Origin: a virus
Reading direction: 5' to 3' (one strand)
Virus record (IMG/VR): IMGVR_UViG_3300027857_000004
Span: 8,598-72,597 of that record
DNA length: 64,000 nucleotides
Positions 1,416 through 62,603 of this stretch are shown here, in pieces (within the stretch, counting starts at the first letter, position 1; every line of letters begins with the position of its first letter). The notes under the pieces are model-generated. The model was given only the letters and a program-made list of their open reading frames with translations, was not told the origin of the DNA and made no database searches. Made by a program: the position numbers and the translations under genes.

Positions 1416-2767
1416 TTTCAAATTTGGTATTGGATACCTTATTTTCAAGGCGTCCAAAAATAAGGTATGTGTCTCCGCCGATTTGCGGGCTCATCCAGTC
1501 GCCCACAAGCTCCGGCGCCCCGGCAGTGTCGCTCGAAACAATCAGCCCATTGGGCACGGTTCATTACTTTTTCACTGATGGCGGTCTAACGTGGGACTCG
1601 TATCCAGGCGCGATTTGTTACAATGTTTACCGTTCTAACCTGGGCTCGACTTCTTTTCTTGGGATTGTCGAGTGCGGACCGCAACAGATTTTGCCCGTCG
1701 ACCCAGGGTGCTACGTTGTCACCGGGGTAACGCAGGATGGAGAAACACCATTCGGGCAGCCCATCTGCACTCAAACGCACATTCCGCCTTGCTCGGTGCC
1801 GGTGCATTATTTTATCACGGATGCTATCGGAGGTTTGGTGTTGCGTTGGGACGCTTTTCCAGATGCAACCTGTTACAACGTTTATCAGGACGGCACGAAA
1901 ATCCAATCGTGCATACCTTTACAGGACGTGCCGGTCTCGCCCCCTTTAACGGGTCAGACTTGCTTTGTAGTCACCGCGATTGCTCCTTGTGGCGAAACTC
2001 CGCAGAGCACACCGGTTTGTTTGTCGCCACCTCCACCTCCGCCATTGCGAAATGGACTCGTGGGGTATTGGCCTTTGGATGAACAGGTAGGAGTTACCCC
2101 GGTCTATAATCCGCCCGCGATTGATTTTTCAGGAAACGGAGAAAATCTCCCACTTACGAACGGTCCGAGTGCACAATCGAACACCGGGCTCGTCAATCGC
2201 TGCTTTTTCCAGAGCACCAGTGCGAACCTGTCGCACCCGGACGATGCTTTTCTGGGCATGGGACCGGGCAAATCGTTTACCATGACCGGCTGGACATTGG
2301 GAATTGGTTACGGATTCAGCAGTGCTATAGTCTATTCGAAATGGTCAGTCGCTAACAAAGATTATGCAGTTTATATCGCGGACGATGGGGTAAATTTTCA
2401 ATTGAAGTTCACGGCATACGATTTGACGGGTTCGCCGCAAACCGCTATTTACGCGGTGCCAGTGGCAGGGCGCCCCAATAACACGGATTGGCATTTCATC
2501 GCGTTCGGATACGACGATTCTTTGCAGCAAATCTGGTTGCAGCTCGACAACGGAACAAAGGTAACCGCTCCGTGCGTTGGCGTTCATCGAACAGTGGCTC
2601 CATTCGGTTTAGCGGACACGACCAACACGGCGGACATTGCGCCGTCTGCCGGTTCTATCGGTAATTACGACGAGACCGCTTTTTGGGACCGTCCGTTAAC
2701 TGCGGCTGAACTGACTCTGATTTACAACACGAACCTGGGCGGCCAGCCGCTCTCAATCCTTATTTAA
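1412..2767 (+). CDS. Tail/surface protein: two Cys-rich FN3-like repeats, polyproline linker and a LamG/ConA-like domain
   Basis: Repeats WD.(Y/F)P.A.CYNVY...VVT....GETP; SPPPPPP; GLVGYWPLDE...WHFIAFGYD...YDETAFWDRPLTAAE (LamG signature). Confidence 0.75.
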   Translation: MISNLVLDTLFSRRPKIRYVSPPICGLIQSPTSSGAPAVSLETISPLGTVHYFFTDGGLTWDSYPGAICYNVYRSNLGSTSFLGIVECGPQQILPVDPGCYVVTGVTQDGETPFGQPICTQTHIPPCSVPVHYFITDAIGGLVLRWDAFPDATCYNVYQDGTKIQSCIPLQDVPVSPPLTGQTCFVVTAIAPCGETPQSTPVCLSPPPPPPLRNGLVGYWPLDEQVGVTPVYNPPAIDFSGNGENLPLTNGPSAQSNTGLVNRCFFQSTSANLSHPDDAFLGMGPGKSFTMTGWTLGIGYGFSSAIVYSKWSVANKDYAVYIADDGVNFQLKFTAYDLTGSPQTAIYAVPVAGRPNNTDWHFIAFGYDDSLQQIWLQLDNGTKVTAPCVGVHRTVAPFGLADTTNTADIAPSAGSIGNYDETAFWDRPLTAAELTLIYNTNLGGQPLSILI

Positions 2768-2768
2768 T

Positions 2769-3602
2769 ATGGCACTCAAAGCAACAAACCTAACGCTGCA
2801 GGTGGCGCCGCTGCCTCCGACATTCAAAGGGACTCCGAACGATTTAGTCGCGCAAATCGTCGCGCGGACTCGAATTCTTTCGCCGAGCGGCACGAATTTC
2901 ATTTTCATCGGCGACACCGAGCCGACGAGCAATGTGGGTCCGTGGCTCAAAGGCGGCACACAATGGTGGGTCTGGTCCGACACGCTAAATAAGTATGTCC
3001 CGGTCGACATTTCGGCATCGTTCACGATTCCATTTTGGGTCAGCAACTCGCAGCCTCCGAATGCTACGCCGCCGGTGTGGCTGAAGACCGAGAAAGACCA
3101 GACTGACCAAACAATCGGTCAATTCGGAAATCCGGTAGGCTGGTTTTTCTGGAACCCGGCTACTTCGGCCTGGGTGCCGTGGAATTCTGAACCGATTTCT
3201 GGGCCAACATCTGCGCGACCGGCTAATCCGGAAAATCTTCAGCAATTCTATGACACTGATATCGGCTGCTTGATTTGGTTCGAGCGTAGCCAGTGGCGGA
3301 CTGTGTCAGGCGTTCCCGGGGACGTCAAATCGGTTCTGTTCACCACCTTGGGGGCTGCCTTGATAGCGAACCCAGGCTGGGCAGTTGTTGGCGACGTCGC
3401 CCCTCAGTTGATTGGCCGGGTAATCATGCAGGCCACTCAAGACCCAGGTGCGACTCCGGCGGCTGTGCTAAATCCGCCAACGAACGTGCCATCGCGCGCG
3501 GCTTTCGACACGTTCGGTGAAAACTCCGGAATTCAGTCAAATCCAGGGAGCACGCTGACAATTCCGCCCCAGGTAGCGCTCTGGCACCTGTATAAGCAGT
3601 AA
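2769..3602 (+). CDS. Putative tail fibre/virion structural protein
   Basis: Trp/Pro-rich ORF with GDVK tail-collar-like segment, within the tail module. Confidence 0.45.
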   Translation: MALKATNLTLQVAPLPPTFKGTPNDLVAQIVARTRILSPSGTNFIFIGDTEPTSNVGPWLKGGTQWWVWSDTLNKYVPVDISASFTIPFWVSNSQPPNATPPVWLKTEKDQTDQTIGQFGNPVGWFFWNPATSAWVPWNSEPISGPTSARPANPENLQQFYDTDIGCLIWFERSQWRTVSGVPGDVKSVLFTTLGAALIANPGWAVVGDVAPQLIGRVIMQATQDPGATPAAVLNPPTNVPSRAAFDTFGENSGIQSNPGSTLTIPPQVALWHLYKQ

Positions 3603-7291: not shown

Positions 7292-10200
7292 ATGGCAGAC
7301 CCGATTACATTGACGCCGGACGAAATCGCTTCGGCGACTCCAATCACTCAGCCTACTGCTCAACCGGTGCAGCTCACGCCGGAAGAGATTGCTTCTGCTC
7401 AGCCGGTCAATCAGGCAAACCCGGTAAATCCTATTCGTGATTTCACGCCGGACCAGCTCGTCGCTCTCCAACGGCAAGCACCTGAGAGTTTCGATATCAT
7501 TCAGCAATTTCTCTCCGACCCGACCGCGCAAAAAGACCCTGCCGTTAGGCGGAACGCTGAGCAGGCGTATCATCAACTCCGCCAAGAGCCGTGGTATCAC
7601 GATTTGCCGACACCGGCGCAAATGGCGGGGTCTGTTGGCACTATCGTCAAAGGTTTCGGCAAGCAGGCGAGTAATTACGCCTATGCGGCAGCTGGCGCGC
7701 CCGCACTCGGAATCGCAACCGCAACCGGCGCAGGTGATGAACAATCCCGCCAAGAACTGGCGACCGAAATTCAGAACAAGATTGCAACGAACTGGGCAGG
7801 CACAGAGACCGGTCTCACCGGATTAATTTCGCAGATTGGCAAAGTAGTCAGCGCAACAGGCCGGGTGCTCCATATAAACAAGCAGCTCGCCGACTACACG
7901 CCGGAAGACAAAAGCGCAGCTTTTCAAGACGCGCTAACCCAGGCGCAGCAAATTCAATCAGCGATGAAGGGACAGGGACCGCTCATGCAAGCGGTGGGCG
8001 GCAACATCGTGCCGTCACTGAATCTCAAACCCGAAGAAGTTGCCACCGCAGCCGCTGGCGACCCATTTTCGTGGGAAGCGATGGGGACTGGATTAGGCGC
8101 AGCCGGGAAGCTAACGCGCGCCGCGATTCCCGAGGCGGCTCGCGCGGCGATTCAAGATGTTTCGCAACGGGCAGTCGACACACTCGCCAAAGGTGTGACC
8201 ATTCCCGCCGGTGCTGCTATTTCATCTTTTGGCAAACTGGCCGGTATGGGAATCGAAAGAGCCCCCGGCGCAGCGGCTGCCGGAGCTGTTCTTGGCGCCA
8301 CTCACGCACTCGGTCTCCCCGGTGAACTTAGCGGCTTCTTGGCTGCCGGTTTAAAAGACATTCGGTCTGCCCCGATAACTCGGCTAGGTGAAGCAGTCGG
8401 TCAAGCTGCCTCTGAGGCACCCGCATTCGGGCGACAAATTACCGGCGCTGAACCGGTCACCGGCGCCTACGCTCAATTAGGACGCGATATCGTCAAATCG
8501 ATTCCCACTGCCGTAGCAGATATCGGCAAAGGCGCGGCATTCGACCTGGGGCTCGCTGCGACGTCTGACACGCCGCAGGAAAAGCAAGCGGTTGGGCTGG
8601 GCACAACGTTAGGAATTCTCGGAGGCGTAGCTGGCGCAGGAAAACGCGCTCTAACCGGACAGCTAATTGCACCGCGCGAATTCACCGGCAACGCGAACTA
8701 TTTACCAGGAACTGGAACAGTTCCGATTTTGGAAGATTTGACCCGGCAAACGTTCCCCAGCATGACGCCGGGCCAGCGTGTCCGGTTCAACGCGACCAGA
8801 GATTTTCTGCGCGGCGCGAATCCGAATGCAGACATTTTCGTCAGCTCTGGCTCAGATGCGACAGCTAAAGCGTTGACCGACCTTGGCTACTCGCCGGACG
8901 ATGCTGCCCGGCTCAGCTCACAAGGTGGCGTCACAACCGAAATTAACGGTCACAAAGTCGCCATCGTCAATGCCGACAGCTTTGATACCGCGCCACACGA
9001 AGCTCGCCACGCGATTGAGAACGTAATGGGCGAGCAGGCACTCCGCCAGCTCGATGACGAAATCAGTTCCGCATACGGAACTAAAAACATGGACGCTATC
9101 GGGCGCTATTACACGTCCAAGATATTTCAGGGGCGAGACCCGGGCGCAAATTGGCAGACGCCTCTTCTCGATATCACGGGCGAAGGCGAGCGGATGGCGC
9201 GTGAGAAATTAATTCAGCAAGGAGTGCCGGACGACCAACTCAAACAGCAATCGTCCGACTGGGGAAATGTTTTGACTCCGGCGGAGATGCAAGACGCAGC
9301 GAACCGTTACGTGGCTCGCGAAATCGCCGCAGAGAATTTCAGCACTTGGTTCAGCAAGATGGGCGGAGACGTCAACGCGAAACAACAGGTGCCCGAGAAG
9401 CTCGCGCAATGGACAGCCGCCGTGATGAGAACCTTCGGCGCTGAACCGCTCGCCGGTCAGGTCAGTCCGCTTGGATTGCCGCTCTCCAGCAAAGTGATTC
9501 AACGAGTGGGTGAGCAGGCGCGTGAGTTGACCCGACCGAGTGTCGAACCGGCTGAAGAACCAGCTACCGGTGCGCCGAGACCCCCGGAAAAGGAAGCGCG
9601 CAACGCAGTCGAATTAGCGAGAACCGCGCCCGATGTTCCGGTAGCCGGTGGCACGAAATCGCAGCGTGAAATTCTCGGGACCGTCGCCGAAGCGATAGCG
9701 AACCGGACCGGCGTAAAGCTCAATTACCTGTCAGCGCCGGAGGAACCGGCTGCCGCTACGACGTCAAACCGGCCAGTTCGGCGTCAGATGATTGAGATTT
9801 TTCGCTCGATGCCGGAGTCGGCACGCAAACTCTGGGAGAAAACTTTCTTCCCCGACAAAGTCACGAAGTCGAAAAAGGGTTATCAAATTCAAGGCTGGGC
9901 ACCGGAAGTCTTTGCCGCCAATGCGCACAAGTTGGCAGGCACAATCGCCAGCACGCCGGAAATGGCTGGCCTGTCTCCGTATGAAGTCGACCCGGCAACA
10001 AAGTCATTTACGCCAGAAGCTTGGCAGCAACTGTATAACGACACCAGCCGATTTGTGGCGAATCAGCAGTCCGGACGCACCGGTTCAGGTGTCCCTCTCG
10101 AAGTTCCGCCGGGAATGCAAGAGAAGGGATTTTTCAAACCGCCGTTGAAACCGGGCGCAGGTTCGCTCGACCAACGCAAGGCCGATTTTATTTCGATGCT

Positions 10201-13200
10201 TTTCAACTTCAAGCTGCCTGACACTGCGCGGCTCGGAGGTGGAAAGTTCCCGCTCAATGTCGCCGGGCAGGAAGTAAGCAAAGCGACTATCCCGGGACGC
10301 ATTGAGTCGCCAGTGATTCCCAGACCGGAATTTACAGAGGGCGCAGTCAAGAAGTTTCCCGAACTGCAAGGCAGACAGATTCTGGAAGTCAATCCGGTCC
10401 GGAACGAATTCGAGAATGCGGCGCTGAAGGCGAATAAGCCGATGCCTTCGTTCATCGAATCCGTTCAGAAATTAAACCTGGAGCACATCAAGGAAGCGGA
10501 ACACGCTCCGGAAGCGTCTCCGGAATTCCGCGGCAACACTTTAACACTGTCAGCCGGATTCGCGCCGAAAACGAACGAGCCGCGAGCCGTTAAAATGGCG
10601 GCTATTCGCGACGAAGGCACCGGCAGGGTTTTCGAGGGTCCGATGCATGCGTCCGCTACGCTCGACTGGCTGCGCGACAAGCACGCTGACAAAATCGATG
10701 AAGCTGGCAATCTGCCGCCCGAAGTAGAATTGGATGCCTGGAATTCGCACCCCAACGTAACCGAAGGATTTACTACAAACAATGGTGAGTTTCTTAACCG
10801 AGAAGAGGCGTTCGAAAGAGCCCAAAGCTTTGGTCAGATGCCAGCTGCTGTAGACGAACCTGGGGCTTCTTTAGAATCCACCGCATTTGAAAAACACAAA
10901 AAGTTAATATCTGCGTTCGCTCCAGCTTCTCGTGAGCAGATGGCAGAATATGAACGTCAACGAGCCGCCTACGAAGCGACTCCCTGGTGGAAGCGTCCAC
11001 CCGTAGGGGAGACCGAAACCGGACGGCACACTTCCTACGCCGGTGACCCGGAATCGGGTTTAGTTCTGCACAGCGCGAAGCAGCGCAGCACCGTTTTCGT
11101 CAGGCCGGGAAACGAAGCGAACGCTTTTCTTTCGAAGTGGCAACAGGCGCCGAACCAAGCGGCAAAAGACCAAGTGGTGGAATCTTATTTCGGTCCGACT
11201 GGTGCGCAATTTGCGCCCGATAAAAAGACGTTCATCGTTCGGCACGGCTCGACCGAAATGAACAACTCGGACCCGGACAAAGACTTGATTCGCGGCCATA
11301 TCGATGTTCCGCTCGATGATAAAGGCAGACGCGAAGCGGGTGAGGCTGCTCAGAATATCGCCGACCAAGGCGGAGTTAACCACGTCATCGCGTCCGACTT
11401 GGGTAGGACGCAAGAAACCGGCCAGATAATCGCCGATAAGAACGGCGCGACAATGGAATTAGACCCGGGGTTGCGGCCTTGGAAGTTCGGTCCGACAATC
11501 GAAGGCAAGCCGACGGCGAAGATGCTGCCTGAGATTAAGCGGCTGACCGAGAACCCGGATGAGAGACCGCCCGAGGGTGAAACGTTCAACGAATTCAAAG
11601 ACCGCTTTCTGGACGCTTTCCATCGCGCGCAAGAGAATCACGCCGACAAAAACACTGCGATTGTGACGCACTACCGAGGCACGAAGTTGCTCGATGCGTG
11701 GCGCGCTACCGGAACTGACAACGACACAATCGACAAGGCTATTTTCGAGAAATACGACAAAGACAAAACGCCGGGCAACGTTGACGTTGTCGACAAAGCC
11801 GGTGCTGAGCTAGCGCCAGAGCCTGAGAAACAACCAGCAGTCGATAAAGCGGCTGAGTTAATGCGGGATGCGAATGACGATGTCAGCCGACAATGGGCAA
11901 GCGAAGCAGCCGCGCAATTCGCCGCGAAAAAACCTGTCGAAGGTGGGCGAAAATCCAAACAGGATTGGACACTGCGAGAGGGGCCGGGTCTTTTCAGCAA
12001 AGCGTGGATTCTGCCCGATGGCAAACCGGTTCAGCTTGGCGGCCAATGGCACCACGAGTGGCTGAATGAGAATCCGAACATCGCGAAAAAATATGGTCTT
12101 AAAACTACCACTAGCGCTGAAGACAACCGTTCTGAGGCTTTGCAAAAAGGGTTCGCTCGTGTTAACTATGAAAAAAACACCGGCACGCTCAAGGTCGAAG
12201 CTCGCGCGCAGGATTGGCAAAAAATAGCACCGGCAATCAGGCAGCTAGCGGAAACTAATCTGCGCAAAATCGACAACATGGACGTTCATCTGCTCGACTC
12301 CAAAGCGCAGCGAATAGTCGACTCTGATGGGGTGGCATTGCACACATACGACCCGGGCGAGAAGATGGACCATCTTCCGATGATATCGGAGCCGACGAGC
12401 ACGACCACGATGAGTGCACAAGCTCCAGCAGAAAAAGCTCAATTTTCACCTAGTAAAAAAGAAGATAAAATAAGAGCGGTTGAAAGATACAAACAATTTT
12501 GGATTTTGAACAATGGTGAAATAGTGCCTTCTCCAGAAGGGCACATGGCTTCTGCTAGAGACGTGCTGCCCCACGAAACCATATTAGAAGACCGTAAAAC
12601 TGGTGTGGCAGGTTCCTTATATGATAGCATGCAAAACCGGGGGCATCTTCGGGGCATGCTAATGGAATATCCAAACAAAAGCATAGAAATTGAGGGGTCG
12701 GTAAAAGTGCCAGTGTCCAGATTAGCAAAAGAATCCATAGAAGATATTTCACACGCTCTCGAAAGACCAGCAAATATAAATGGAAAGCGACTGGAGACTG
12801 GTTTTCCGGAAGAACAAGGTCCGGGCCTCGTCTCAAATCAATTCGCACCGAGCGACCATCCGCGCGCTATTCGCGGCGCCGCTGTGCGTGACCGTGAGAC
12901 CGGTAAGATTTACGAGGGTCCGATGCACTTCTATGCGTTGCAGCGAGCGGAAGAGGCGGGCGCGACCGGGATACATGACGAAGGTTTTATGACGAACAGC
13001 GGCGAGTTTTTGAATCGCCGAGAAGCATTTGACCGAGCAAAAGAACTAGACCAGTTGAAGACGCCGGAAACTCCGCAGCAAGCGGAAGCGTTGGAACGCG
13101 CAGAGCGATTCGGCGCGTTATCGGAACAAGTCAAAGGCATCCAATTCGCGCCACCGAATCAAGACGAGCTGGACAAAATCAAATCGGGCGAATCGTTCGG

Positions 13201-14962
13201 TCAAACGTTCAACCAGGACGGTTCGGTATGGCAGCCCACAAACAAAAAGCAGGATATCGTCACACTCGCCAGTGTCAACATTCCGACTGCCCAATTGAGT
13301 CAGGACGAAGTCCAGAAAGCATCTGCCCCCTACTCCGATTTGCTGAACAATCCGAATGTCAAACTCGGTGCGTTCAATTTCGAGCAGGCCGGTAAGCCAA
13401 TGACGAGTATCGATATCAACGCCATCGTGCCGCAAGCACACCGCGAGAATTCGCTCAAGTTCGCCAAGGACAACGACCAGATGGCGATTTTCGATATGGC
13501 GAAAAACGATGTGGTGAACACCGGCGGCGCCGGTAACACGAAGCTGACCACTCCGGCGCACATTGCCAAAGCTCTGCCCGCGCTACTCGCTGGAGAACCA
13601 GTTGATGTCGACCGGATTTTAGCTGCCCAACATCGCATAGCGTCGAACATTCCGGCTGGCAAAAAGCCTTTGCCTGTCAGTGACGACTTGTCGGTCAAGT
13701 CAGCTCTCGCGCAGACGACGATGGACAAGTTCACCACCGAAGTTGCGGACCGAATCAAAAGCAATCCAGGTTTTCGAGACATCAAAGGAACGTCTCCAGA
13801 GAAAGTCCTGCCGCAGATTGTGAATCGGATGGCTGAGAATATCCGTTTCCTTTTCGACAAAGCGACCGATGCGAACAAAAAACTGTGGAAGCAATGGTAT
13901 GACATCGCGAACGATTTAAGCCATCGCCTGGGTGGCGAATTCGAGCTGCCCCACTTTGCTGTCGCCGGTATCAATGCCCGGCTCTCGCCGCAAAAAGATT
14001 GGTATATGAACGTGACGCTGACTCGCAAGCTTCTTCAGACCGTTGCGGCGGACCCGGCGTGGAGCGAAAGCGACAAACTGTTCACGCGGTCAGTTCTGGA
14101 GAACGCCGAAACAGCGCGCCGCAAAAAATTAGCCGATGACGGCGAAACTCCGACCCAGAAAAGTATCGATGCATTTAACGACCGCATTGCGAACGTGGAG
14201 AGCATTCCGGAAGGAAAACGAGTAAGCGAAATGACGCCGGAGGATGCCGCTTACTTGATTCGCAGTCACAACGAACTGAAGGGCGACAAAATAATTGTCG
14301 ACCACAATTTCAAGCCGGTCAAGGGAGCGGGCAAACTGACGTGGCAGACATATGAGGCACTCTCTGATGCGTTGAAGATTCTGCGCAACCCGACTCTCGA
14401 AGAAATCAACACCCAGCTCGGGAGCAACCACAAGGTCAGAAGTTTTTATAACAATCACGTCGACCCGATGAACCCACAAGACGTGACTGTCGACACTCAC
14501 GCCGTCGCAGCTTCGCACTTAATGCCCTACGGGAGCAAGAACAAACCTATCTTGGAGAACTTCGGAGCGGTCCGGCACAAAAACTCCGGCTACAACGGAA
14601 GCTATTTCGTGACTGCCGATGCGTATCGGCAGGTTGCAAAAGAAGTTGGCTTACTCCCGCGCGAAGTTCAATCTATCGTGTGGGAACAAATGCGCAACAC
14701 GCTGACACCGGCAGGAAAGCGGACACCTGGATTGGTGAAGCAGACCGACGCAATCTGGGCGAAAGCAGAGAAGGGAAAAATCACTCGCGACGAAGCACGC
14801 AACCAGATTTACAGCCTTTTCGAAAAGGTCAGCGGTAACAAAGCGAGCAAAGGTCAAGCGGACTGGTATGACGAGTATCTGGCGAGCAAAGAGCAAGCGT
14901 TCGCAAAAGATTTCGAAGGTAAAGAAAGTCTAACACATGAAACTGCCGAACAGCCATTTTAG
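7292..14962 (+). CDS. Giant polyvalent internal virion protein (HExxH metallopeptidase-like motif, histidine phosphatase, duplicated small modules, C-terminal HhH-GPD/DUF7178-like domain)
   Basis: 2556 aa; PHEARHAIE near 8995; FIVRHG...DVPLDDKG...SDLGR...GETF...VTH near 11230-11680; C-terminal WY...LSPQKDW..N...KVRSFY...VTVDTHA...YRQVA...LPREVQSIVW. Confidence 0.8.
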   Translation: MADPITLTPDEIASATPITQPTAQPVQLTPEEIASAQPVNQANPVNPIRDFTPDQLVALQRQAPESFDIIQQFLSDPTAQKDPAVRRNAEQAYHQLRQEPWYHDLPTPAQMAGSVGTIVKGFGKQASNYAYAAAGAPALGIATATGAGDEQSRQELATEIQNKIATNWAGTETGLTGLISQIGKVVSATGRVLHINKQLADYTPEDKSAAFQDALTQAQQIQSAMKGQGPLMQAVGGNIVPSLNLKPEEVATAAAGDPFSWEAMGTGLGAAGKLTRAAIPEAARAAIQDVSQRAVDTLAKGVTIPAGAAISSFGKLAGMGIERAPGAAAAGAVLGATHALGLPGELSGFLAAGLKDIRSAPITRLGEAVGQAASEAPAFGRQITGAEPVTGAYAQLGRDIVKSIPTAVADIGKGAAFDLGLAATSDTPQEKQAVGLGTTLGILGGVAGAGKRALTGQLIAPREFTGNANYLPGTGTVPILEDLTRQTFPSMTPGQRVRFNATRDFLRGANPNADIFVSSGSDATAKALTDLGYSPDDAARLSSQGGVTTEINGHKVAIVNADSFDTAPHEARHAIENVMGEQALRQLDDEISSAYGTKNMDAIGRYYTSKIFQGRDPGANWQTPLLDITGEGERMAREKLIQQGVPDDQLKQQSSDWGNVLTPAEMQDAANRYVAREIAAENFSTWFSKMGGDVNAKQQVPEKLAQWTAAVMRTFGAEPLAGQVSPLGLPLSSKVIQRVGEQARELTRPSVEPAEEPATGAPRPPEKEARNAVELARTAPDVPVAGGTKSQREILGTVAEAIANRTGVKLNYLSAPEEPAAATTSNRPVRRQMIEIFRSMPESARKLWEKTFFPDKVTKSKKGYQIQGWAPEVFAANAHKLAGTIASTPEMAGLSPYEVDPATKSFTPEAWQQLYNDTSRFVANQQSGRTGSGVPLEVPPGMQEKGFFKPPLKPGAGSLDQRKADFISMLFNFKLPDTARLGGGKFPLNVAGQEVSKATIPGRIESPVIPRPEFTEGAVKKFPELQGRQILEVNPVRNEFENAALKANKPMPSFIESVQKLNLEHIKEAEHAPEASPEFRGNTLTLSAGFAPKTNEPRAVKMAAIRDEGTGRVFEGPMHASATLDWLRDKHADKIDEAGNLPPEVELDAWNSHPNVTEGFTTNNGEFLNREEAFERAQSFGQMPAAVDEPGASLESTAFEKHKKLISAFAPASREQMAEYERQRAAYEATPWWKRPPVGETETGRHTSYAGDPESGLVLHSAKQRSTVFVRPGNEANAFLSKWQQAPNQAAKDQVVESYFGPTGAQFAPDKKTFIVRHGSTEMNNSDPDKDLIRGHIDVPLDDKGRREAGEAAQNIADQGGVNHVIASDLGRTQETGQIIADKNGATMELDPGLRPWKFGPTIEGKPTAKMLPEIKRLTENPDERPPEGETFNEFKDRFLDAFHRAQENHADKNTAIVTHYRGTKLLDAWRATGTDNDTIDKAIFEKYDKDKTPGNVDVVDKAGAELAPEPEKQPAVDKAAELMRDANDDVSRQWASEAAAQFAAKKPVEGGRKSKQDWTLREGPGLFSKAWILPDGKPVQLGGQWHHEWLNENPNIAKKYGLKTTTSAEDNRSEALQKGFARVNYEKNTGTLKVEARAQDWQKIAPAIRQLAETNLRKIDNMDVHLLDSKAQRIVDSDGVALHTYDPGEKMDHLPMISEPTSTTTMSAQAPAEKAQFSPSKKEDKIRAVERYKQFWILNNGEIVPSPEGHMASARDVLPHETILEDRKTGVAGSLYDSMQNRGHLRGMLMEYPNKSIEIEGSVKVPVSRLAKESIEDISHALERPANINGKRLETGFPEEQGPGLVSNQFAPSDHPRAIRGAAVRDRETGKIYEGPMHFYALQRAEEAGATGIHDEGFMTNSGEFLNRREAFDRAKELDQLKTPETPQQAEALERAERFGALSEQVKGIQFAPPNQDELDKIKSGESFGQTFNQDGSVWQPTNKKQDIVTLASVNIPTAQLSQDEVQKASAPYSDLLNNPNVKLGAFNFEQAGKPMTSIDINAIVPQAHRENSLKFAKDNDQMAIFDMAKNDVVNTGGAGNTKLTTPAHIAKALPALLAGEPVDVDRILAAQHRIASNIPAGKKPLPVSDDLSVKSALAQTTMDKFTTEVADRIKSNPGFRDIKGTSPEKVLPQIVNRMAENIRFLFDKATDANKKLWKQWYDIANDLSHRLGGEFELPHFAVAGINARLSPQKDWYMNVTLTRKLLQTVAADPAWSESDKLFTRSVLENAETARRKKLADDGETPTQKSIDAFNDRIANVESIPEGKRVSEMTPEDAAYLIRSHNELKGDKIIVDHNFKPVKGAGKLTWQTYEALSDALKILRNPTLEEINTQLGSNHKVRSFYNNHVDPMNPQDVTVDTHAVAASHLMPYGSKNKPILENFGAVRHKNSGYNGSYFVTADAYRQVAKEVGLLPREVQSIVWEQMRNTLTPAGKRTPGLVKQTDAIWAKAEKGKITRDEARNQIYSLFEKVSGNKASKGQADWYDEYLASKEQAFAKDFEGKESLTHETAEQPF

Positions 14963-46292: not shown

Positions 46293-47627
46293 ATGGAAAA
46301 TTTTGATACACTCAGCGCGTCCGTTTCGGGCGCAGACGGCAGCGAACAGGTTAACCTTACGTGGACGAATGTCGTCCCGGGGTTTCCGCCCATTGTGGCG
46401 TTCGGTGTTCAGAGAAAACGGTTTGGCCGCGGCGACGATGACTGGACTACTCTCGTCAGCGCTTTGACTCCGGTGGTCGTTCCGGTTCCTCCGGCGAGCG
46501 GTCCCGGGCCTGCTGGTCTTGCGCCAGCGCTTGGTTTGGCCAGCACCTTCGAGGTTCTCGCCGCCACCACTATCACCAACACCGGGCCAACCGTTGTAAA
46601 CGGTGACTTGGGCATGAGCCCCGGCTCTGCCGTGACTGGATTTCCTCCCGGGGTAATCACCGGCTCAGTTCAGATTGGCACTACTCTCGCCACGAACGCG
46701 CAGACCGATTTGACCACCGCTTACAATAACCTGACCGCGCGTGGTCCCGGCACCGTCGTCGGCACCACTGACTTGGGAGGCAGCACGCTGACCCCCGGCG
46801 TCTACTCTTCGGCATCTACCATGCTGATTTCTTCGGGCGACTTGATTCTGGACGGCCAAGGCAATCCCGGTGCGGTGTTCGTTTTCATCGTCGGTTCAGC
46901 TCTCACCGTTGTCACCCCTCGCAAGGTGGTCCTGATTAACGGCGCGCAAGCTGTGAACGTTTTCTGGGCTGTCGGCAGCTCCGCCACAATCGGAGTCAGC
47001 TCGGTTCTCCAGGGCTCAATTTTGGCGGTGACTTCCATCACGCTCAACACTGGTGCCACCGTAGTGGGCCGGTTACTGGCCCAGAATGGCGCCGTCACTC
47101 TCGATTCTAATCCGGCTACGCTTCCGGTTCTTGCTGCACCTGCTCCCGAAGGAGTAGCGATTCCGGTGCCCACGCCGTTTGCATTCACCGATTCTCCGGC
47201 AGAAGGCGACTGGACATATCGTCTGCGGGCTGTTTTGACGCAAGGCGGCACGAACAATCTCGGCACGTTCATTTACTCGAACAGTGTCAACGTGACCACC
47301 GAGGCAACCACCGGCGAGGTGACCTTGACATTGTCTGCTTCGCCTGACGGTGATTTGCCCGCTTACACTCGGGTGACTCTGAACTGGGTCATCGACGGGG
47401 ACGCTGTTGACGTGCGGCGATATGAGGTGCAGCGAACACTCGACCGCGGCGCCACCTGGAAGACCGTGCATCAGCAAGATGAGTTTTCGAGCTTGAGCTA
47501 TGCCGAGGTGCTTCCTCCGGCTCTCGGCGATGTTTTCTACCGGGTCATTGCGGACTTGCCTTCGGCCACGCCCCCGTATCAGACGGACGTGCAGAGCATT
47601 TCCAACAGTGTGACGGTTCGCACATAG
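46293..47627 (+). CDS. Ice-binding (DUF3494) domain protein with FN3-like domains
   Basis: F.VLA.TTITNTG.T..NGDLG.SPG...TGFPP; A.TDL..AYN; LTPGVY; LDGQGNP.AVFVF; NGAQA.NVFW.VGSSATIG; G.ILA..SITL.TGA...GRLLAQ.GAVTLD. Confidence 0.9.
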   Translation: MENFDTLSASVSGADGSEQVNLTWTNVVPGFPPIVAFGVQRKRFGRGDDDWTTLVSALTPVVVPVPPASGPGPAGLAPALGLASTFEVLAATTITNTGPTVVNGDLGMSPGSAVTGFPPGVITGSVQIGTTLATNAQTDLTTAYNNLTARGPGTVVGTTDLGGSTLTPGVYSSASTMLISSGDLILDGQGNPGAVFVFIVGSALTVVTPRKVVLINGAQAVNVFWAVGSSATIGVSSVLQGSILAVTSITLNTGATVVGRLLAQNGAVTLDSNPATLPVLAAPAPEGVAIPVPTPFAFTDSPAEGDWTYRLRAVLTQGGTNNLGTFIYSNSVNVTTEATTGEVTLTLSASPDGDLPAYTRVTLNWVIDGDAVDVRRYEVQRTLDRGATWKTVHQQDEFSSLSYAEVLPPALGDVFYRVIADLPSATPPYQTDVQSISNSVTVRT

Positions 47628-58036: not shown

Positions 58037-58782
58037 GTGCGCCCACGAAAATTTTAGTGGCCCTTCAGTTCTGGGAAGGCGACCGCGCGCAAGCGGGCAA
58101 GCTCACGGAGTATCTTGCTGACTTGGAAAAAACGCACAACGACCAAGCGGATTTTCTTCTCGTCAATAGATTCGACTGCAAGCCGCTGGCCAAAGAGCAG
58201 GCGTATTTGTCGCGCAAGTTCAATATTTTTTCGTATCAGTCCCCGCGCGGCGCGACCGGCTGGCCTTACGGCTGCAACTCGCTCGCCGCGTCGACTGTTA
58301 CCTGGGCCTATCGAATGGGTGAAGCGAAACGCATACCGACCTACAAAGCAATCTTTACGTGCGAGTCCGATGGGTGCCCGGTTTTCGCGGACTGGATTTC
58401 GCGCATGTCATTCGCCTGGGACACCGTCAACGTATTGAAGCCGGTATGCATCGCTGGGCCACTCGTGCAAGTTCCGGCTGAGCATATAAACGGAAACTGT
58501 TTGATTGGCGGCAGCATCGCAAATTTACAATGGATGAGCCGGTGCATCCACGGAGTGCACTCGGGCGGCTGGGACTTCGTATTGGCGAATGAATTCCGGA
58601 ATCGCGGCTGGGCAAATATAGCTGGCATGTTGAGTCTTTACAACACGCGCGATTACACGCTCGACCGCTACAATCGGTTAGTTCAGGATAACGTAATCTG
58701 GGTGCACGGCTGCAAGGATTCGTCGCTGATGGACCTGGGTAGAATTCACATACTTGGTGCTGATAATGTCCCCGCTCTCTAA
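58033..58782 (+). CDS. Putative glycosyltransferase
   Basis: GWP.G.N, ESD (DxD-like), HINGN, WD, HGCKD. Confidence 0.55.
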   Translation: MSAPTKILVALQFWEGDRAQAGKLTEYLADLEKTHNDQADFLLVNRFDCKPLAKEQAYLSRKFNIFSYQSPRGATGWPYGCNSLAASTVTWAYRMGEAKRIPTYKAIFTCESDGCPVFADWISRMSFAWDTVNVLKPVCIAGPLVQVPAEHINGNCLIGGSIANLQWMSRCIHGVHSGGWDFVLANEFRNRGWANIAGMLSLYNTRDYTLDRYNRLVQDNVIWVHGCKDSSLMDLGRIHILGADNVPAL

Positions 58783-59701
58783 AGTTTTAATCACCGGTGG
58801 GCGCGGCCTAGTGGGAAGCGCTTTGCTTCGTGTGTTGCGCGCGAATGGGTTCGCCAATATTGAAGCTCCGAGAAGCGATGAGCTGAATTTGTGCGAGCAA
58901 GAACAAGTCCGAGTCGCGATGGACGCAATTCATCCCGATTGGATTTTTCATTGCGCTGCTCGCGTGGGAGGAATCGTGGGCAATGCCAAGGCACCGGCGG
59001 ATTTCATTCGTGATAACCTGCTGATGCAGACAAACGTGATTGAAGCCGCTCGTCGCTCGGGTGTTCGTAAGCTGCTTTTTCTTGGTTCAGCATGCGTGTA
59101 TCCCAAGTTTGCGAACAATCCAATTCAGGAATCGTCGCTGATGACCGGCGAACTAGAGCCTTCAAATCGTGCCTATGCGATAGCAAAAATCGCGGGCATC
59201 GAAATGTGCCAAGCATATCGCAAGCAGTATGGATGCAACTTCATCGCAGCGATGCCTACGAACCTTTACGGGCTGAGTGACCACTACGACCTGGAGAACA
59301 GCCACGTCCTGCCGGGTATGATTCGGCGAATGCACGAAGCAAAAACCGCGGGGCAGCCTTCGGTTACGCTTTGGGGAACTGGCCAACCGACCCGTGAGTT
59401 TTTATTTGCGGACGACTTAGCGGAAGCGTGTCTTTTCTTGATGAACTATTACGACGAAGGCGCGCTGATAAATATCGGGTCCGGCCAGGAAATCCCGCTG
59501 TATGTCGCCGCGAATCACGTCAAGAATGCTGTCGAGTATAAAGGCTGGATTGAGTGGGACACATCAAAGCCGGATGGCACGCCTCGCAGGCAACTTGACA
59601 GTTCCAAGATTTTCGAGCTGGGCTGGAAACCCAAGGTGTCGCTCGAAGATGGATTAGCAAGAGCATATTTAGATTTTGTATGTCGAACCACCGTGCTTTA
59701 A
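58766..59701 (+). CDS. fcl: GDP-L-fucose synthase
   Basis: [57 protein letters not shown]. Confidence 0.95.
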
Positions 59702-60654
59702 TAACTGGAATCACTGGACAGGACGGTTCATATTTGGCCGAGCTGTTGCTGTCGAAAGGCTATGAAGTAAGCGGCATTATTCGCCGGGCGAGCACGTTCA
59801 ACACGGCGCGCATTGACCATATTTTCGATAAGTTGAACATTCAACACGGAGACCTGACGGATGGCAGCAACCTTACCCGGTTGGTTCGAGACATGAATCC
59901 AACCGAGGTGTATAACCTGGGAGCCCAGAGCCACGTCAGAGTCAGTTTCGACACGCCCGAATACACCGCGGAAGTTACCGGCACCGGCACGATTCGATTG
60001 CTCGAAGCGATTCGCGCCAGCGGCTGCAATCCCCGGTATTATCAGGCCAGCTCCAGCGAAATGTTCGGCTCAGCGCCGCCACCGCAGAATGAGCTGACCC
60101 GGTTTCACCCTCGCAGTCCTTACGGTTGCGCGAAGGTCTTCTCATATCACGCGACCGTGAACTATCGCGAGAGCTACGGGATGCACGCAACGAACGGAAT
60201 TCTTTTCAACCACGAGTCGCCCAGGCGCGGAGAGACCTTCGTGACGCGCAAGATTGCCCGCGCCGCAGCCCGAATCGCGCTAGGGCTACAAAAAGAGCTT
60301 GTGTTGGGCAATCTCGATGCGAAGCGCGACTGGGGTCATGCGAAAGATTTTGTGCAAGCAATGTGGATGATGCTTCAACAACCGCACCCGGACGATTTTG
60401 TTGTGGCGACCGGTGAGACACACTCGGTTCGAGAGTTTCTCGACTTGGCGTTTAAACACGTTAATCTCGACCCCGAGAAATATGTTATTATCAACCCTAG
60501 ATATTTTCGCCCGGCGGAGGTGGACGTGCTGCTCGGTGACTCGACAAAAGCGCGGCAGCTGCTCGGATGGCAGCCCACGGTAAGTTTTACGCAGCTCGTG
60601 GACGAAATGGTTCATGCTGAGCTACAAGAATTGAGTTGTGTTTCCGATAGGTAG
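59680..60654 (+). CDS. gmd: GDP-mannose 4,6-dehydratase
   Basis: [48 protein letters not shown]. Confidence 0.97.
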
Positions 60655-60665
60655 CCTGCTATTAT
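60636..60665 (+). promoter_or_regulatory. Host sigma70-type promoter TTGTGT-18-TATTAT with extended TG
   Basis: ATG at 60672 lies 6 nt after the -10 box. Confidence 0.55.
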
Positions 60666-60671
60666 TTACTA

Positions 60672-61319
60672 ATGATTTGCGCTGGTAGTTTAATTGAAAA
60701 ACAGGAGCCACTCCAGGCTAAAGATGGAGGTTCAACACCTACCCCAGCGCTCCAATTTAAGTTTGGGCTGGTGAAGCAGATTCCCATGTCTCCCGTGGTT
60801 CGGGATTTCGTAGAATCCCGTCACTACTCCAAAACAATTACGGGGTTAACCGGAGTAATTCCTTTCGGGATTTTTAACCCCGAGTTAGCGGGTGTTATAC
60901 TTTTTGGGACTCCCGCATTTCCTCGTGTAGCAGAAAAGTATTGCCCCGGCAATCCAAAAGCGGTTATTGAGCTAAGAAGAATGGTGCTGATTGACGAGAC
61001 GCCCAAAAACACAGAAAGTTTTTTTATTGCGAAGGCCCTGAAGTGGCTTAGACAAAACACGGACTTCCGTTTTGTGTTATCGTATTCGGACCCGAGATAC
61101 GGGCACTCTGGTGTGGTTTACAAGGCGACCGGATTCCAATGCGTAGGTCGAACGGCAAAGAAAAAATTAATAATTCGAGACGGATATGTTCGGCAGACCC
61201 GGGCGCTATGGCAACGAGACGGAGCGATGGCGGCAGATATAAAAGAGGAGCTAAGACTTGGTGTGAGCCGATTGGAAGAAACACCTCCAAAGTTTATTTA
61301 TCTTTTAAAATTGCGATGA
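60672..61319 (+). CDS. mom: Mom-like DNA adenine-modifying GNAT enzyme
   Basis: FVESRHYS, GVILFG.P, IELRRM.L....PKNTESFFI, SYSDP..GHSG.VYKATGF. Confidence 0.8.
   Translation: MICAGSLIEKQEPLQAKDGGSTPTPALQFKFGLVKQIPMSPVVRDFVESRHYSKTITGLTGVIPFGIFNPELAGVILFGTPAFPRVAEKYCPGNPKAVIELRRMVLIDETPKNTESFFIAKALKWLRQNTDFRFVLSYSDPRYGHSGVVYKATGFQCVGRTAKKKLIIRDGYVRQTRALWQRDGAMAADIKEELRLGVSRLEETPPKFIYLLKLR
60679..60754 (+). tRNA. tRNA-Gly(TCC)-like element inside the mom ORF
   Basis: 76 nt; acceptor GCGCTGG/CCAGCGC, U73, encoded CCA; D stem GTTT/AAAC; AGCC-ACTCCA-GGCT; T arm GGAGG-TTCAACA-CCT(A)CC. Confidence 0.7.
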
Positions 61320-62059
61320 ATGAAAACACTTTGGTCAGCGTGCACGGTTACGCGGGCGACCTTCACCAGATTCGCTGGCTGCTCCCGTATTATCTTCATC
61401 ATCAGTGTCCCGTTGCAATCTGCGCGCCCGAAGACTCGCCGATTACATCTTCGATTCTCTCCCCCAGAAAAGAGATTCGATATATCAACGCAGGCAAGCG
61501 TGCTTACATAGGCCAGCTCTCGCTCGACCGGCAAGCGATTCACCTTCAGAAGCTGCTCGAAGCGGGACCGTATCAGTGGTTCCTGATGAACGATTCCGAC
61601 TCGGTGTGTTTGTCGCCGAGGCTGCCTGATTACCTTTTCGCAGACCCCAGCATTGTATGGTCAAACGTGGTCAGTGACGAAATGCATCCGCGCGCCGCGA
61701 CGTATCCGTTCCCGCGGCTAGCTTTTCAGCCGCCTTATTTCATGTCGCGTTCGTGCGTTGAGAAACTGGTTGAGGTGGCGCCGCGCGTTCCGGCTGACGT
61801 GGACGGAATTGAAGCGCGCACACCGTTTATAGATTGGTGTATGATGGCGTGGTCTATCCGCGCCGGGCTCGGCTACCGGTCTTTTCCGGATGGCATTTCG
61901 GTTCCCACGAACGAAGACAATCGCGCCTCGTGCGACTGTATGGATAATGAGGTGCAGCACAATGGGAAGATTTTCCTGCACTCGGTGAAGCGGCGTGAAA
62001 TGATTTTGAGAGTTGCTTATTCTAGGTTGCGGTATAAGAAGTCGCATAATATCAAATAA
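61316..62059 (+). CDS. Putative glycosyltransferase
   Basis: FLMNDSDSVCL DxD motif, QPPY, C-terminal HSVK; within the sugar cassette. Confidence 0.6.
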   Translation: MNENTLVSVHGYAGDLHQIRWLLPYYLHHQCPVAICAPEDSPITSSILSPRKEIRYINAGKRAYIGQLSLDRQAIHLQKLLEAGPYQWFLMNDSDSVCLSPRLPDYLFADPSIVWSNVVSDEMHPRAATYPFPRLAFQPPYFMSRSCVEKLVEVAPRVPADVDGIEARTPFIDWCMMAWSIRAGLGYRSFPDGISVPTNEDNRASCDCMDNEVQHNGKIFLHSVKRREMILRVAYSRLRYKKSHNIK

Positions 62060-62099
62060 AGAGTTGTGGTGTTGGGCACTGTTTTGCGATATTAGTGAC

Positions 62100-62550
62100 A
62101 TGAGATACTGTGCTAAGTGCAACCAGGACAAAGATGCTTCGGCTTTTGGGAAAGACAAACACTCGCCCGATGGACTTCTGTATACCTGCAAGGAGTGCAG
62201 AAAAGCCGCTAAGAAAAGCAATCCCGGGACCATGCGAGCGGCTCGGGAGGCTACTCAGAAGTATCGGGCCAACAATTTAGAAAAAACCCGGCAACAAGAC
62301 CGAGAAGCACAGGCTAGAAAACGGGCATCAGAAACTACAGAGGAATATGAACAACGATTGGCCGGTATGCGGGATTATCAACGCCGGGTCAAGCCCTGGA
62401 TAGGCCGAAAAAGAACGCCCAAAGACACCGCGCGAGGCAGCGAGAGTGATTCAGCGATACCACAACGACCCGGCGTTTAAAGCAAAAATGAATTTCCAGC
62501 CCAAATGGGCAAAAGACAATTTGGAAAAGGGAGACCGTTGGGAAGGATAA
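62100..62550 (+). pseudogene. Frameshifted, internally deleted HNH endonuclease
   Basis: CAKC...F.KD...DGL...CKEC N-terminus; another frame ends NFQPKWAKDNLEKG, matching the 41204 gene terminus, with the HNH core missing. Confidence 0.65.
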
Positions 62551-62574
62551 CCTTGGCCGCAAAAAGCAACGCGC

Positions 62575-62603
62575 CCGCAACTGTAACTGGTTGCGGGTTT
62601 TTT
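62575..62603 (+). terminator. Rho-independent terminator overlapping the -35 element of the capsid promoter
   Basis: cccgcaac-8-gttgcggg followed by a T run; TTGCG-N17-CGACTGTT at 62591-62620. Confidence 0.75.

Follow-up and report, generated by a model that had tools for sequence, protein, structure and literature searches.

The closest described systems to the locus analysed here are the non-proteogenic tRNAGly species of staphylococci and the Mom protein of phage Mu. In staphylococci, the extra tRNAGly(UCC) paralogues NP1-NP3 are charged by glycyl-tRNA synthetase (GlyRS), bind elongation factor Tu (EF-Tu) and the ribosome weakly, and feed the non-ribosomal glycyl transferases of peptidoglycan synthesis (FmhB, FemA, and FemB), which keeps this side pathway out of competition with translation; the lineage is reported to be confined to staphylococci (PMC7826273). 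Silva et al. (Nat Commun 2026, PMC13219725) showed that Mu Mom loads glycine from Gly-tRNAGly onto N6 of adenine in double-stranded DNA. This use of glycyl-tRNA, now in print, had been brought up by an earlier reading of the present DNA from its letters only (the sequence-only reading). All three E. coli tRNAGly isoacceptors serve Mu Mom, Gly-tRNAAla is rejected, and the authors suspect that the protein recognises the acceptor end of the tRNA (PMC13219725). The donor is a tRNA with a glycine acceptor end, and Mu, which has no tRNA of its own, uses any host isoacceptor (PMC13219725; preprint bioRxiv 10.1101/2023.03.24.534169). Here, we describe a tRNA-Gly-like element of 76 nucleotides (nt) that lies within the first codons of a mom-like gene in a 64-kb stretch of viral DNA (the window, 64,000 nt; IMG/VR record IMGVR_UViG_3300027857_000004, positions 8,598 to 72,597), which is part of one 72.6-kb contig. 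Comparison among related sequences indicates that it is the first-noticed member of a large tRNA-Gly-derived RNA family travelling with phage mom, and this mom-linked family has apparently not been described before.

The working principle proposed below for this element is like that of the staphylococcal system, whereas the arrangement and the chemistry differ. The staphylococcal tRNAs are encoded by chromosomal free-standing genes and the present element lies inside the enzyme's own open reading frame (ORF); the glycine acceptor is a DNA adenine for Mom and a peptidoglycan precursor for the Fem system. The staphylococcal T stem consists of weak pairs (A49-U65, U50-A64, A51-U63) with a T loop of UGC or UGU, and no bulge is reported in the accessible part of PMC7826273, whereas the window's T stem has G-C, G-C, and A-U pairs plus a bulged A, a T loop beginning UUC, and a shortened anticodon loop; the element does not belong to the staphylococcal lineage. 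As regards Mu, targeted look-ups in the main text of PMC13219725 and in its preprint found no mom-linked tRNA gene, and the main text makes no mention of genomic context (its supplements might hold neighbourhood data); the phrase "tRNA gene" occurs there once, where a Methods heading refers to those of E. coli. In the accessible full-text literature, PMC7824862 and a 2025 conference report included, a tRNA gene linked to mom was not found to be described.

The tRNA-Gly-like element and its mom gene

The cloverleaf proposed by the sequence-only reading was confirmed in the sequence, part by part. Its components and the gene that contains it are listed here by window position; R2 is a covariance model of the family, introduced below.

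60679-60754, plus strand: tRNA-Gly-like element, 76 nt with the encoded CCA included (sequence, fold, relaxed ARAGORN, R2)
60679-60685, plus strand: 5′ strand of the acceptor stem, GCGCTGG (G1 C2 G3 C4 U5 G6 G7), perfectly paired with 60744-60750
60688-60702, plus strand: D arm, GTTT, loop AATTGAA, AAAC (fold, R2 alignment)
60705-60720, plus strand: anticodon-arm analogue, GAGCC-ACTCCA-GGCTA, a 5-pair stem with one G.A mismatch and a 6-nt loop
60726-60743, plus strand: T arm, GGAGG-TTCAACA-CCT[A]CC, with A 60741 bulged
60744-60750, plus strand: 3′ strand of the acceptor stem, CCAGCGC, paired with 60679-60685
60751 and 60752-60754, plus strand: discriminator U73 and encoded CCA (sequence)
60672-61319, plus strand: Mom-like ORF, 215 amino acids (aa), whose codons 3-28 are the tRNA-like element
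60672-60674, plus strand: ATG, candidate mom start, 7 nt 5′ of nucleotide 1 of the element, in the would-be tRNA 5′ leader
60771-60773, plus strand: GTG, alternative or internal mom start, 16 nt after CCA

Two unpaired bases separate the D arm from the anticodon-like arm, whose loop holds UCC (TCC, 60712-60714), and a 5-nt variable region precedes the T arm, where the bulged A 60741 sits between the third and fourth pairs counted from the loop, i.e., at tRNA positions 63/64. The D loop contains a single G; GG is found in 78 of 100 relatives. Measured against a canonical tRNA, the element possesses the 7-bp acceptor stem, the D arm, and a T loop conforming to UUCRANY, whereas its anticodon-like loop has 6 nt (ACUCCA) where a canonical one has 7 nt, U33, and a full anticodon triplet, and the T stem, interrupted by the bulged A, is not a regular 5-bp helix. 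The minimum-free-energy fold is the cloverleaf (-23.4 kcal/mol, z -2.25), and 5 of 200 shuffled sequences fold as well; folding energy by itself is weak evidence for the element.

A relaxed tRNA search, which had been suggested as a check, gave a divided result: ARAGORN at a relaxed threshold called "tRNA-?(Glu|Gly)(tc)", with a two-base anticodon, at exactly 60679-60754, whereas default ARAGORN found no tRNA gene in the window and the Rfam tRNA model RF00005 reached 19.6 bits, short of the gathering score of 29, with an E of 0.21 over the 601 bases searched. Relaxed ARAGORN also called a "tRNA-Stop(tta)" at 60678-60750 on the minus strand, which was rejected as a mirror of the same helices, both family models being blank on that strand. 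R2, trained on 101 related elements with the window and the related locus L016 left out, matched 60679-60754 with 79.1 bits (E 1.5e-18), its sole match up to E 10 on both strands of the whole 64 kb, although the training set was collected via a pattern from the window's 3′ 29 nt and the independent match therefore concerns the 5′ 47 nt only. As a comparison between sequences, this match provides the decisive test against a chance origin, and it places the window within the family defined by the models R1 and R2, whose members score 44-90 bits. The element is real and no artefact of ORF calling.

The product of 60672-61319 matches the Pfam family PF25680 (Mom), to which Mu Mom also belongs, with E 6.1e-34 and 117.9 bits (cut-off 27.1) over residues 34-193. 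When aligned to Mu Mom (8bv8), residues H58, Y59, R111, S124, D149, R151, and Y159 of the Mu protein correspond to H51, Y52, R103, S116, D140, R142, and Y150 of the window's protein, with Mu numbering taken as chain index + 9, which puts the chain's alanine at S124, as in the S124A crystal construct (PMC13219725); the catalytic residues given for Mu Mom in that source are all kept. The closest Mom homologues are 35-44% identical, matching begins at residues 33-43, and ARAGORN called no tRNA upstream of mom in them.

With regard to the start of mom, no start codon stands between the in-frame stop at 60648-60650 and ATG 60672, which is the probable initiation codon. The N-terminal strand homology to short Mom proteins (FKFGLVKQ vs MKVKNFIVK) begins at the codon directly after CCA, before GTG 60771. 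A Shine-Dalgarno motif is absent at 60672, which says little because this phage rarely uses such motifs, most of its genes having none. The alternative raised by the sequence-only reading, a start at GTG 60771 or ATG 60786, might still apply, and a GTG start 11 nt downstream of CCA occurs in L016 and L017; the in-frame embedding seen across the family nevertheless favours ATG 60672.

A family of elements linked to mom

The N-terminal GGSNPTSPLH of a Mom homologue, P0005, aligns with GGSTPTPALQ of the window's protein, and we infer that the P0005 N-terminus is likewise a translated tRNA-like element; the DNA of P0005 itself was not found in viral or metagenome contigs. Searches with P0005 brought up the loci L016, L017, and L018. 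In the first two, a tRNA that ARAGORN reads as Val(GAC) lies 11 nt 5′ of mom on the same strand, with the acceptor features G1-C72, C2-G71, G3-C70, U73, and CCA and an irregular anticodon arm containing ACC. An A protrudes from their T stem at the site seen in the window, and the flanking pairs compensate (GGAGG/CCU[A]CC vs GACGG/CCG[A]UC).

A strict pattern of 29 letters, taken from both sequences and covering the T arm with its bulge, the acceptor end, U73, and CCA, matched at least 120 stretches in IMG/VR, comprising 101 distinct sequences, with 82 of the 120 exactly 76 nt long; all counts on these 120 stretches and on their subsets (107, 63, and 44) are among the matches listed. A Mom homologue was present in 110 of the 120 (tblastn, E up to 1e-3), and likewise in 110 by our own hidden Markov model. 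Of the 10 stretches devoid of Mom, 5 begin so close to the start of their locus (within approximately 425 nt) that a mom gene upstream would fall outside it. In 107 of the 110, mom is directly adjacent on the same strand, the element preceding mom in 63 and following it in 44, and exactly one copy of the element was present per locus in 100 loci. A looser pattern of 18 letters, restricted to the T arm, was also applied, and matches were kept if they had at least 6 acceptor pairs and a 5′ GC; Mom occurred in the locus for 73 of the 79 distinct tRNA-like matches so obtained. This filter forces positions 1 and 2, and it removed five tRNA-like sequences of other types, none with Mom. L018, which was fetched through its Mom protein, lies outside both the training set and the strict pattern (T loop UUCGCUU), and was missed by ARAGORN, carries an element scoring 77.1 bits at the mom 5′ end.

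Covariation and conserved structure

The sequence-only reading had named covariation among homologues as a check on its proposal. The outcome was positive and broader than expected, in that all four stems covary. In a plain MAFFT alignment of 103 sequences, pairing reached 88.5% against 71.8% in shuffles and covariation 0.450 against 0.153, a score attained by 0 of 500 shuffles; the acceptor stem was 99.3% paired with 4 freely covarying pairs, and the T stem with its bulge was 99.8% paired. The pairs flanking the bulge, which the pattern left free, covary as well (GC 93 and AU 9 for one; CG 93, AU 3, UA 3, GC 2, and unpaired 1 for the other). A model-based alignment, which leans towards the model, gave 97.3% of cells paired (shuffles, 74.6%; slid partners, 38-47%), a covariation of 0.608 against 0.170 that 0 of 500 shuffles reached, double changes in 15 of 21 pairs, and many pair types in the D and anticodon stems. 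RNAalifold recovered the cloverleaf, including the bulge. Taken as comparative evidence, these data show the element to be a conserved structured RNA under selection, and the odd anticodon loop and bulged T stem, which had been noticed in the window as irregularities, prove to be conserved traits of the family rather than decay. We rejected the possibility that the element is the remnant of a tRNA serving as an attachment site, since the cloverleaf is complete and shows covariation and its partner is mom, not an integrase.

Embedding in the mom reading frame

The location of the element inside the mom reading frame, first noticed in the window, holds across the family, where it forms either the first or the last approximately 26 codons. 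Read in the mom frame, the CCA ends on the middle base of a codon in 58 of the 63 elements that precede mom and in 39 of the 44 that follow it, and the window, with its terminal A at 60754, shares this common phase. That phase is stop-free in 103 of 120 elements, against 39 and 34 for the other two frames. When the Mom proteins are clustered at 50% identity, 20 of 23 clusters retain this phase, as do 13 of 15 at 40%, so that the shared phase does not merely reflect recent common ancestry. The mom frame is open over the whole element in 61 of the 63 upstream cases; in a set of 65 elements, 63 were open compared with 53.8 +/- 2.5 after column shuffles, a number reached by 0 of 2000, and the column shuffles revealed no excess of stop-free elements in the other two frames.

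Among 54 distinct upstream-type loci, an in-frame ATG, GTG, or TTG occurs before any in-frame stop and no more than 60 nt 5′ of nucleotide 1 in 48, and in 47 of those 48 the start codon lies 4-25 nt 5′ of nucleotide 1. A strict Shine-Dalgarno motif precedes that start in 19 of the 48, compared with 22 of 216 control windows, and an in-frame ATG within 36 nt was found in 35 of the 54, compared with 13 and 10 for the other frames. In the downstream type, the ORF passes from its usual C-terminus (..PYPK) directly into the element and ends 3-139 nt after it in 33 of 44 cases. Exceptions are L223, L027, and the L016 group, in which a separate mom start follows the element. By comparison among these loci, the element is shown to lie normally within the mom frame, as its first or last approximately 26 codons. 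Of 55 elements upstream of mom, 28 have U at base -1 (nearby T, approximately 27%); this is weakly consistent with a preference of RNase P, and the observation carries no weight in our analysis.

In-frame conservation, stop avoidance, and an upstream start codon could also be expected if the peptide were what matters, with the 26 residues (C/S/R-G-D/E-S ... GGS[IT]PT..L[QH]) acting as a functional Mom tail and the fold being incidental. We consider this explanation very improbable. Paired positions change together and alter the peptide in doing so (CGD/SGE/RAG with SPLQ/PALQ), and because the paired changes alter the peptide, selection on the protein does not explain them. The segment serves at either end of the protein, and loci of the L223, L027, and L016 type do not translate it in that frame. 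Moreover, AlphaFold2 predicts residues 1-29 of the window's protein to be disordered (predicted local distance difference test, pLDDT, <50), with the first strand at 33-36, and in this model the 26-residue peptide from the element looks like a passenger.

Glycine identity and departures from decoding

In bacteria, the glycine identity set, as defined by experiment, comprises G1-C72, C2-G71, U73, C35, and C36 (PMC9976931). The sequence-only reading had found this set in the window; every member is indeed there, and the set is kept in the family. C35 and C36, which formed part of no search pattern, are at least 90% conserved, and the loop triplet is TCC in 78 and ACC in 20 of 100 members of the model-based alignment. 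In the looser-pattern set (n=79), 75 elements have U73, 49 encode CCA while the remainder carry CAA, CUA, or other triplets, and pair 3-70 is G-C in 69, G-U in 9, and C-G in 1. A conserved discriminator combined with variable positions 74-76 is, as far as sequence patterns go, the behaviour of genuine tRNA genes. A G3.U70 subgroup with U73 and CCA was also observed in IMG/VR (L326, L338, L347, L352, L366, L368, and L377), with Mom in 5 of the 7 loci; G3.U70 is the classic alanine determinant.

The features on which decoding depends are altered. Among 100 members in the model-based alignment, the anticodon-like loop measures 6 nt in 57 and 5 nt in 34, whereas only one member has a loop of 7 nt, and a stem-finding heuristic applied to 103 distinct sequences gave 4-6 nt in 87 and 7 nt in 9. 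Default ARAGORN made no call in 64 of the 120 stretches; it read 34 with a two-base anticodon, 10 as Gly(tcc), and 12 in various other ways. Some members of 69-71 nt (L055, L066, L094, L097, L137, L080, L101, and L130) have no normal D arm; they keep the acceptor stem, the T arm, the bulge, and the NCC loop, and have the lowest model scores, 44-58 bits. The first three T-stem pairs almost alone set the affinity of a tRNA for EF-Tu, according to PMC7826273, and the bulged A at positions 63/64 lies within those three pairs. Comparison with canonical tRNAs thus shows a short 5-6-nt loop and a T-stem bulge that do not fit ribosomal decoding, and the combined features suggest an RNA that GlyRS could charge and that would be poorly suited to EF-Tu and decoding.

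Two explanations bear directly on these features. Phages often carry tRNAs, and the element might accordingly be an ordinary phage tRNA-Gly(UCC) that supplements GGN decoding and stands beside mom by chance. Normal tRNA-Gly(UCC) genes do occur near mom in L013, L195, and L205, and a few members have 7-nt loops, with the Gly(tcc) calls in 10 of 120 pointing the same way. We nevertheless judge this highly unlikely, given a 7-nt loop in only 1 of 100, the conserved T-stem bulge, the members without a D arm, the 64 of 120 that ARAGORN does not recognise, the tight in-frame linkage to one gene family, and the lack of any other tRNA in the contig. Alternatively, the RNA could be a decoy that soaks up host factors attacking Gly-tRNAGly or its acceptor end, such as TacT-like GNAT toxins, and so protects translation late in infection; the TacT determinants U73 and G71, as named in PMC9976931, are conserved here. 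This seems the least probable of the explanations considered: it leaves the specific in-frame linkage to mom unexplained, and no such toxin was seen near these loci, where no search aimed at one was made.

Distribution within and beyond phage mom loci

Among 185,579 species genomes (one per species), the strict pattern gave 96 matches, of which 56-57 are adjacent to Mom, 13 are chance matches without an acceptor stem, and approximately 26 are tRNA-like with no Mom in the 8-kb locus. The matches span Acidobacteriota, Chloroflexota, Verrucomicrobiota, Pseudomonadota, Bacillota, and others; one of those beside mom (L272) comes from the named isolate Caballeronia pedi LMG 29323. Bulged-T-stem tRNA-Gly-like genes with no Mom in the 8-kb locus were observed in metagenome-assembled genomes (MAGs) of Alphaproteobacteria (L226, L248, L259, and L311) and Terriglobia (L224, L251, and L319). 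These genes have 7-nt loops and, where checked, host-like neighbours, and ARAGORN calls the alphaproteobacterial ones tRNA-Gly(tcc); they may represent the source lineage of the family. In a further case, L231 (a Deltaproteobacteria MAG), the gene whose 3′ end contains the element matches C-5 cytosine DNA methylase rather than Mom (1918-3033, minus strand; PF00145, E 1.7e-67); the contig is only 3.5 kb long, and mom may lie beyond its end.

In other phage contigs, ordinary tRNA-Gly(UCC) genes were observed approximately 0.2-1.2 kb from mom at L013:3692-3762 (minus strand), L195:2808-2881, and L205:3232-3307, that of L195 being 1.2 kb away, and they have no bulge and, where read, a 7-nt loop. 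In L001-L015, the family models found no element in the region from 500 nt 5′ of the mom match to 150 nt into it, where relaxed ARAGORN made 3 scattered and differing calls. Among cultured phages, tblastn with the window's ORF identified 237 Mom records, and among the 40 listed, matching begins at residue 34 or 43; blastn with a high-scoring member gave partial matches to ordinary tRNAs and no record covering at least 80% of the query, a 76-nt query being insensitive in blastn. These blastn and tblastn searches therefore yielded no cultured example of the element.

A proposed glycyl carrier and its alternatives

The reading that we favour, to which we assign a probability of roughly 55%, is that the family encodes a non-decoding glycyl carrier dedicated to Mom and cut out of the mom transcript. 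The RNA would be released from that transcript by ordinary tRNA processing, with RNase P acting at the 5′ end and trimming or CCA addition at the 3′ end, and host GlyRS would then glycylate it. It would largely escape EF-Tu and the ribosome, and it would provide Mom with a private pool of Gly-tRNA for the formation of N6-carbamoylmethyl-adenine in phage DNA. Excision would take away the start codon in the 5′ type, as in the window, or the stop codon in the 3′ type, and because it removes one or the other, release of the tRNA and an intact mom message would be mutually exclusive. Each transcript would thus give rise to either enzyme or carrier, and the level of Mom would also be held down; this either/or outcome is the one consequence common to the 5′ and 3′ arrangements. 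We also entertain, tentatively and with less confidence, the view of a dual-coding gene, in which a single stretch of 76 nt would serve as the initial or final 26 codons of Mom and also as a non-decoding tRNA that accepts glycine and is consumed by Mom, and in which ribosomes starting 4-25 nt upstream would compete with folding and RNase P cleavage.

Several points weigh against a dedicated carrier. Most mom genes are without the element: it is present in 3 of 24 loci fetched through Mom proteins, and among the 79 IMG/VR loci nearest the window's Mom it occurs only in L223. Since each of the three host isoacceptors serves Mu Mom (PMC13219725), the reaction does not depend on a private tRNA. 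The approximately 26 tRNA-like matches without Mom in bacterial genomes include some with 7-nt loops and the same T-stem bulge, and the bulge may, on this comparison, be compatible with ribosomal use. The T stem is G-C-rich, in contrast to the weak A-U pairing in the non-proteogenic tRNAGly of staphylococci, and GlyRS would need to accept a 5-6-nt loop. The evidence that ribosomes read through the element fits an RNA remaining in the mRNA equally well, and no RNA run holding this DNA is listed among public runs. In addition, the patterns came from the window, so that conservation of the T arm is partly by construction, as is, in the strict set, that of C70-G71-C72-U73-CCA.

The main rival, which we regard as less likely, is an uncleaved, cis-acting tRNA mimic that stays in the mom mRNA and controls mom expression without ever being an amino-acid carrier. 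It could act by blocking the adjacent start codon, as an autoregulatory operator binding Mom or GlyRS, or by recruiting RNase P to inactivate the mRNA. Such a role would suit the start codon found 4-25 nt upstream in 47 of 54 upstream cases (7 nt in the window) and the apparent passage of ribosomes through the element; moreover, the mom gene of Mu is toxic to cells, and Com tightly controls its translation. It is, however, hard to reconcile with the 44 of 107 adjacent cases at the mom 3′ end, where initiation cannot be gated, with the elements of L223 and L027, which are clear of the separate mom start, and with the approximately 26 copies without mom. The conservation of C35/C36 and U73 while positions 74-76 vary, as in matured, charged products, likewise speaks for a carrier over a mimic.

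Genomic context of the window

The contig looks like that of a tailed phage, and its proteins include a DNA polymerase, a helicase, an exonuclease, a weak major-tail match, and an endonuclease VII-like protein. Default ARAGORN found no other tRNA in the window or in the whole 72.6-kb contig, and the only public sequencing run with this DNA is a soil metagenome, which may be the source sample. The genes around the element are all on the plus strand, and mom is placed in a same-strand run between GDP-L-fucose pathway genes and a 247-aa ORF:

58754-59701, plus strand: GDP-L-fucose-synthase-like epimerase, upstream
59680-60654, plus strand: GDP-mannose 4,6-dehydratase (Pfam PF16363, E 5.1e-135), 17 nt before ATG 60672
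61316-62059, plus strand: 247-aa ORF, whose own ATG overlaps the mom stop codon (ATGA)

The 247-aa ORF has no Pfam or PHROGs match (frame from 61319 searched). An ESM Atlas structure search gave TM values of 0.71-0.78 to Branch, Glyco_transf_8, and Fringe family clusters, and a predicted fold similar to GT-A glycosyltransferases is taken as a lead only. The sigma70-like promoter that the sequence-only reading had placed so as to start the RNA near 60672 was not borne out: it is absent from the 3 promoter-like sites listed in 59600-62600 (2.2 expected by chance) by a consensus scan, whose consensus may not be that of the host. Elsewhere in the window, we observed a 2556-aa ORF at 7292-14962 (plus strand), an ice-binding-like domain protein at 46293-47627 (plus strand; PF11999, E 1.3e-60), and an endonuclease VII-like ORF at 62013-62480 (plus strand; phrog_1035, E 5.6e-11), and most large ORFs at 50-58 kb are without a Pfam match.

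Implications for tRNA and mom biology

A tRNA-shaped module and a coding sequence are combined in one transcript in the tufB operon tRNAs, the thrS operator, tmRNA, and the 3′ tRNA-like structures of plant viruses, where RNase P or a synthetase recognises the module. To our knowledge, none of these has a complete cloverleaf in frame inside the gene of an enzyme for which the charged RNA is a substrate. Gene callers and tRNA finders alike mishandle a whole tRNA-type gene that is maintained in frame within a protein gene: ORF callers report such elements as N- or C-terminal "extensions" (e.g., GGSxPTxxLQ), and default ARAGORN misses 64 of 120.

The use by Mom of glycine from charged tRNA has only recently been shown. 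If the proposed carrier role is true, the family would join the staphylococcal Fem system as a second natural example of a tRNA reserved for a side reaction outside translation, and it would be the first such tRNA to serve DNA modification and phage counter-defence. If dual coding is true, the gene would have a built-in control of ratio and toxicity and would contain the first tRNA dedicated to DNA modification. The locus would also offer a simple system for studying competition between tRNA processing and translation on one RNA, and the conserved bulge and short loop provide testable hints on what Mom, GlyRS, and EF-Tu may each need from a tRNA.

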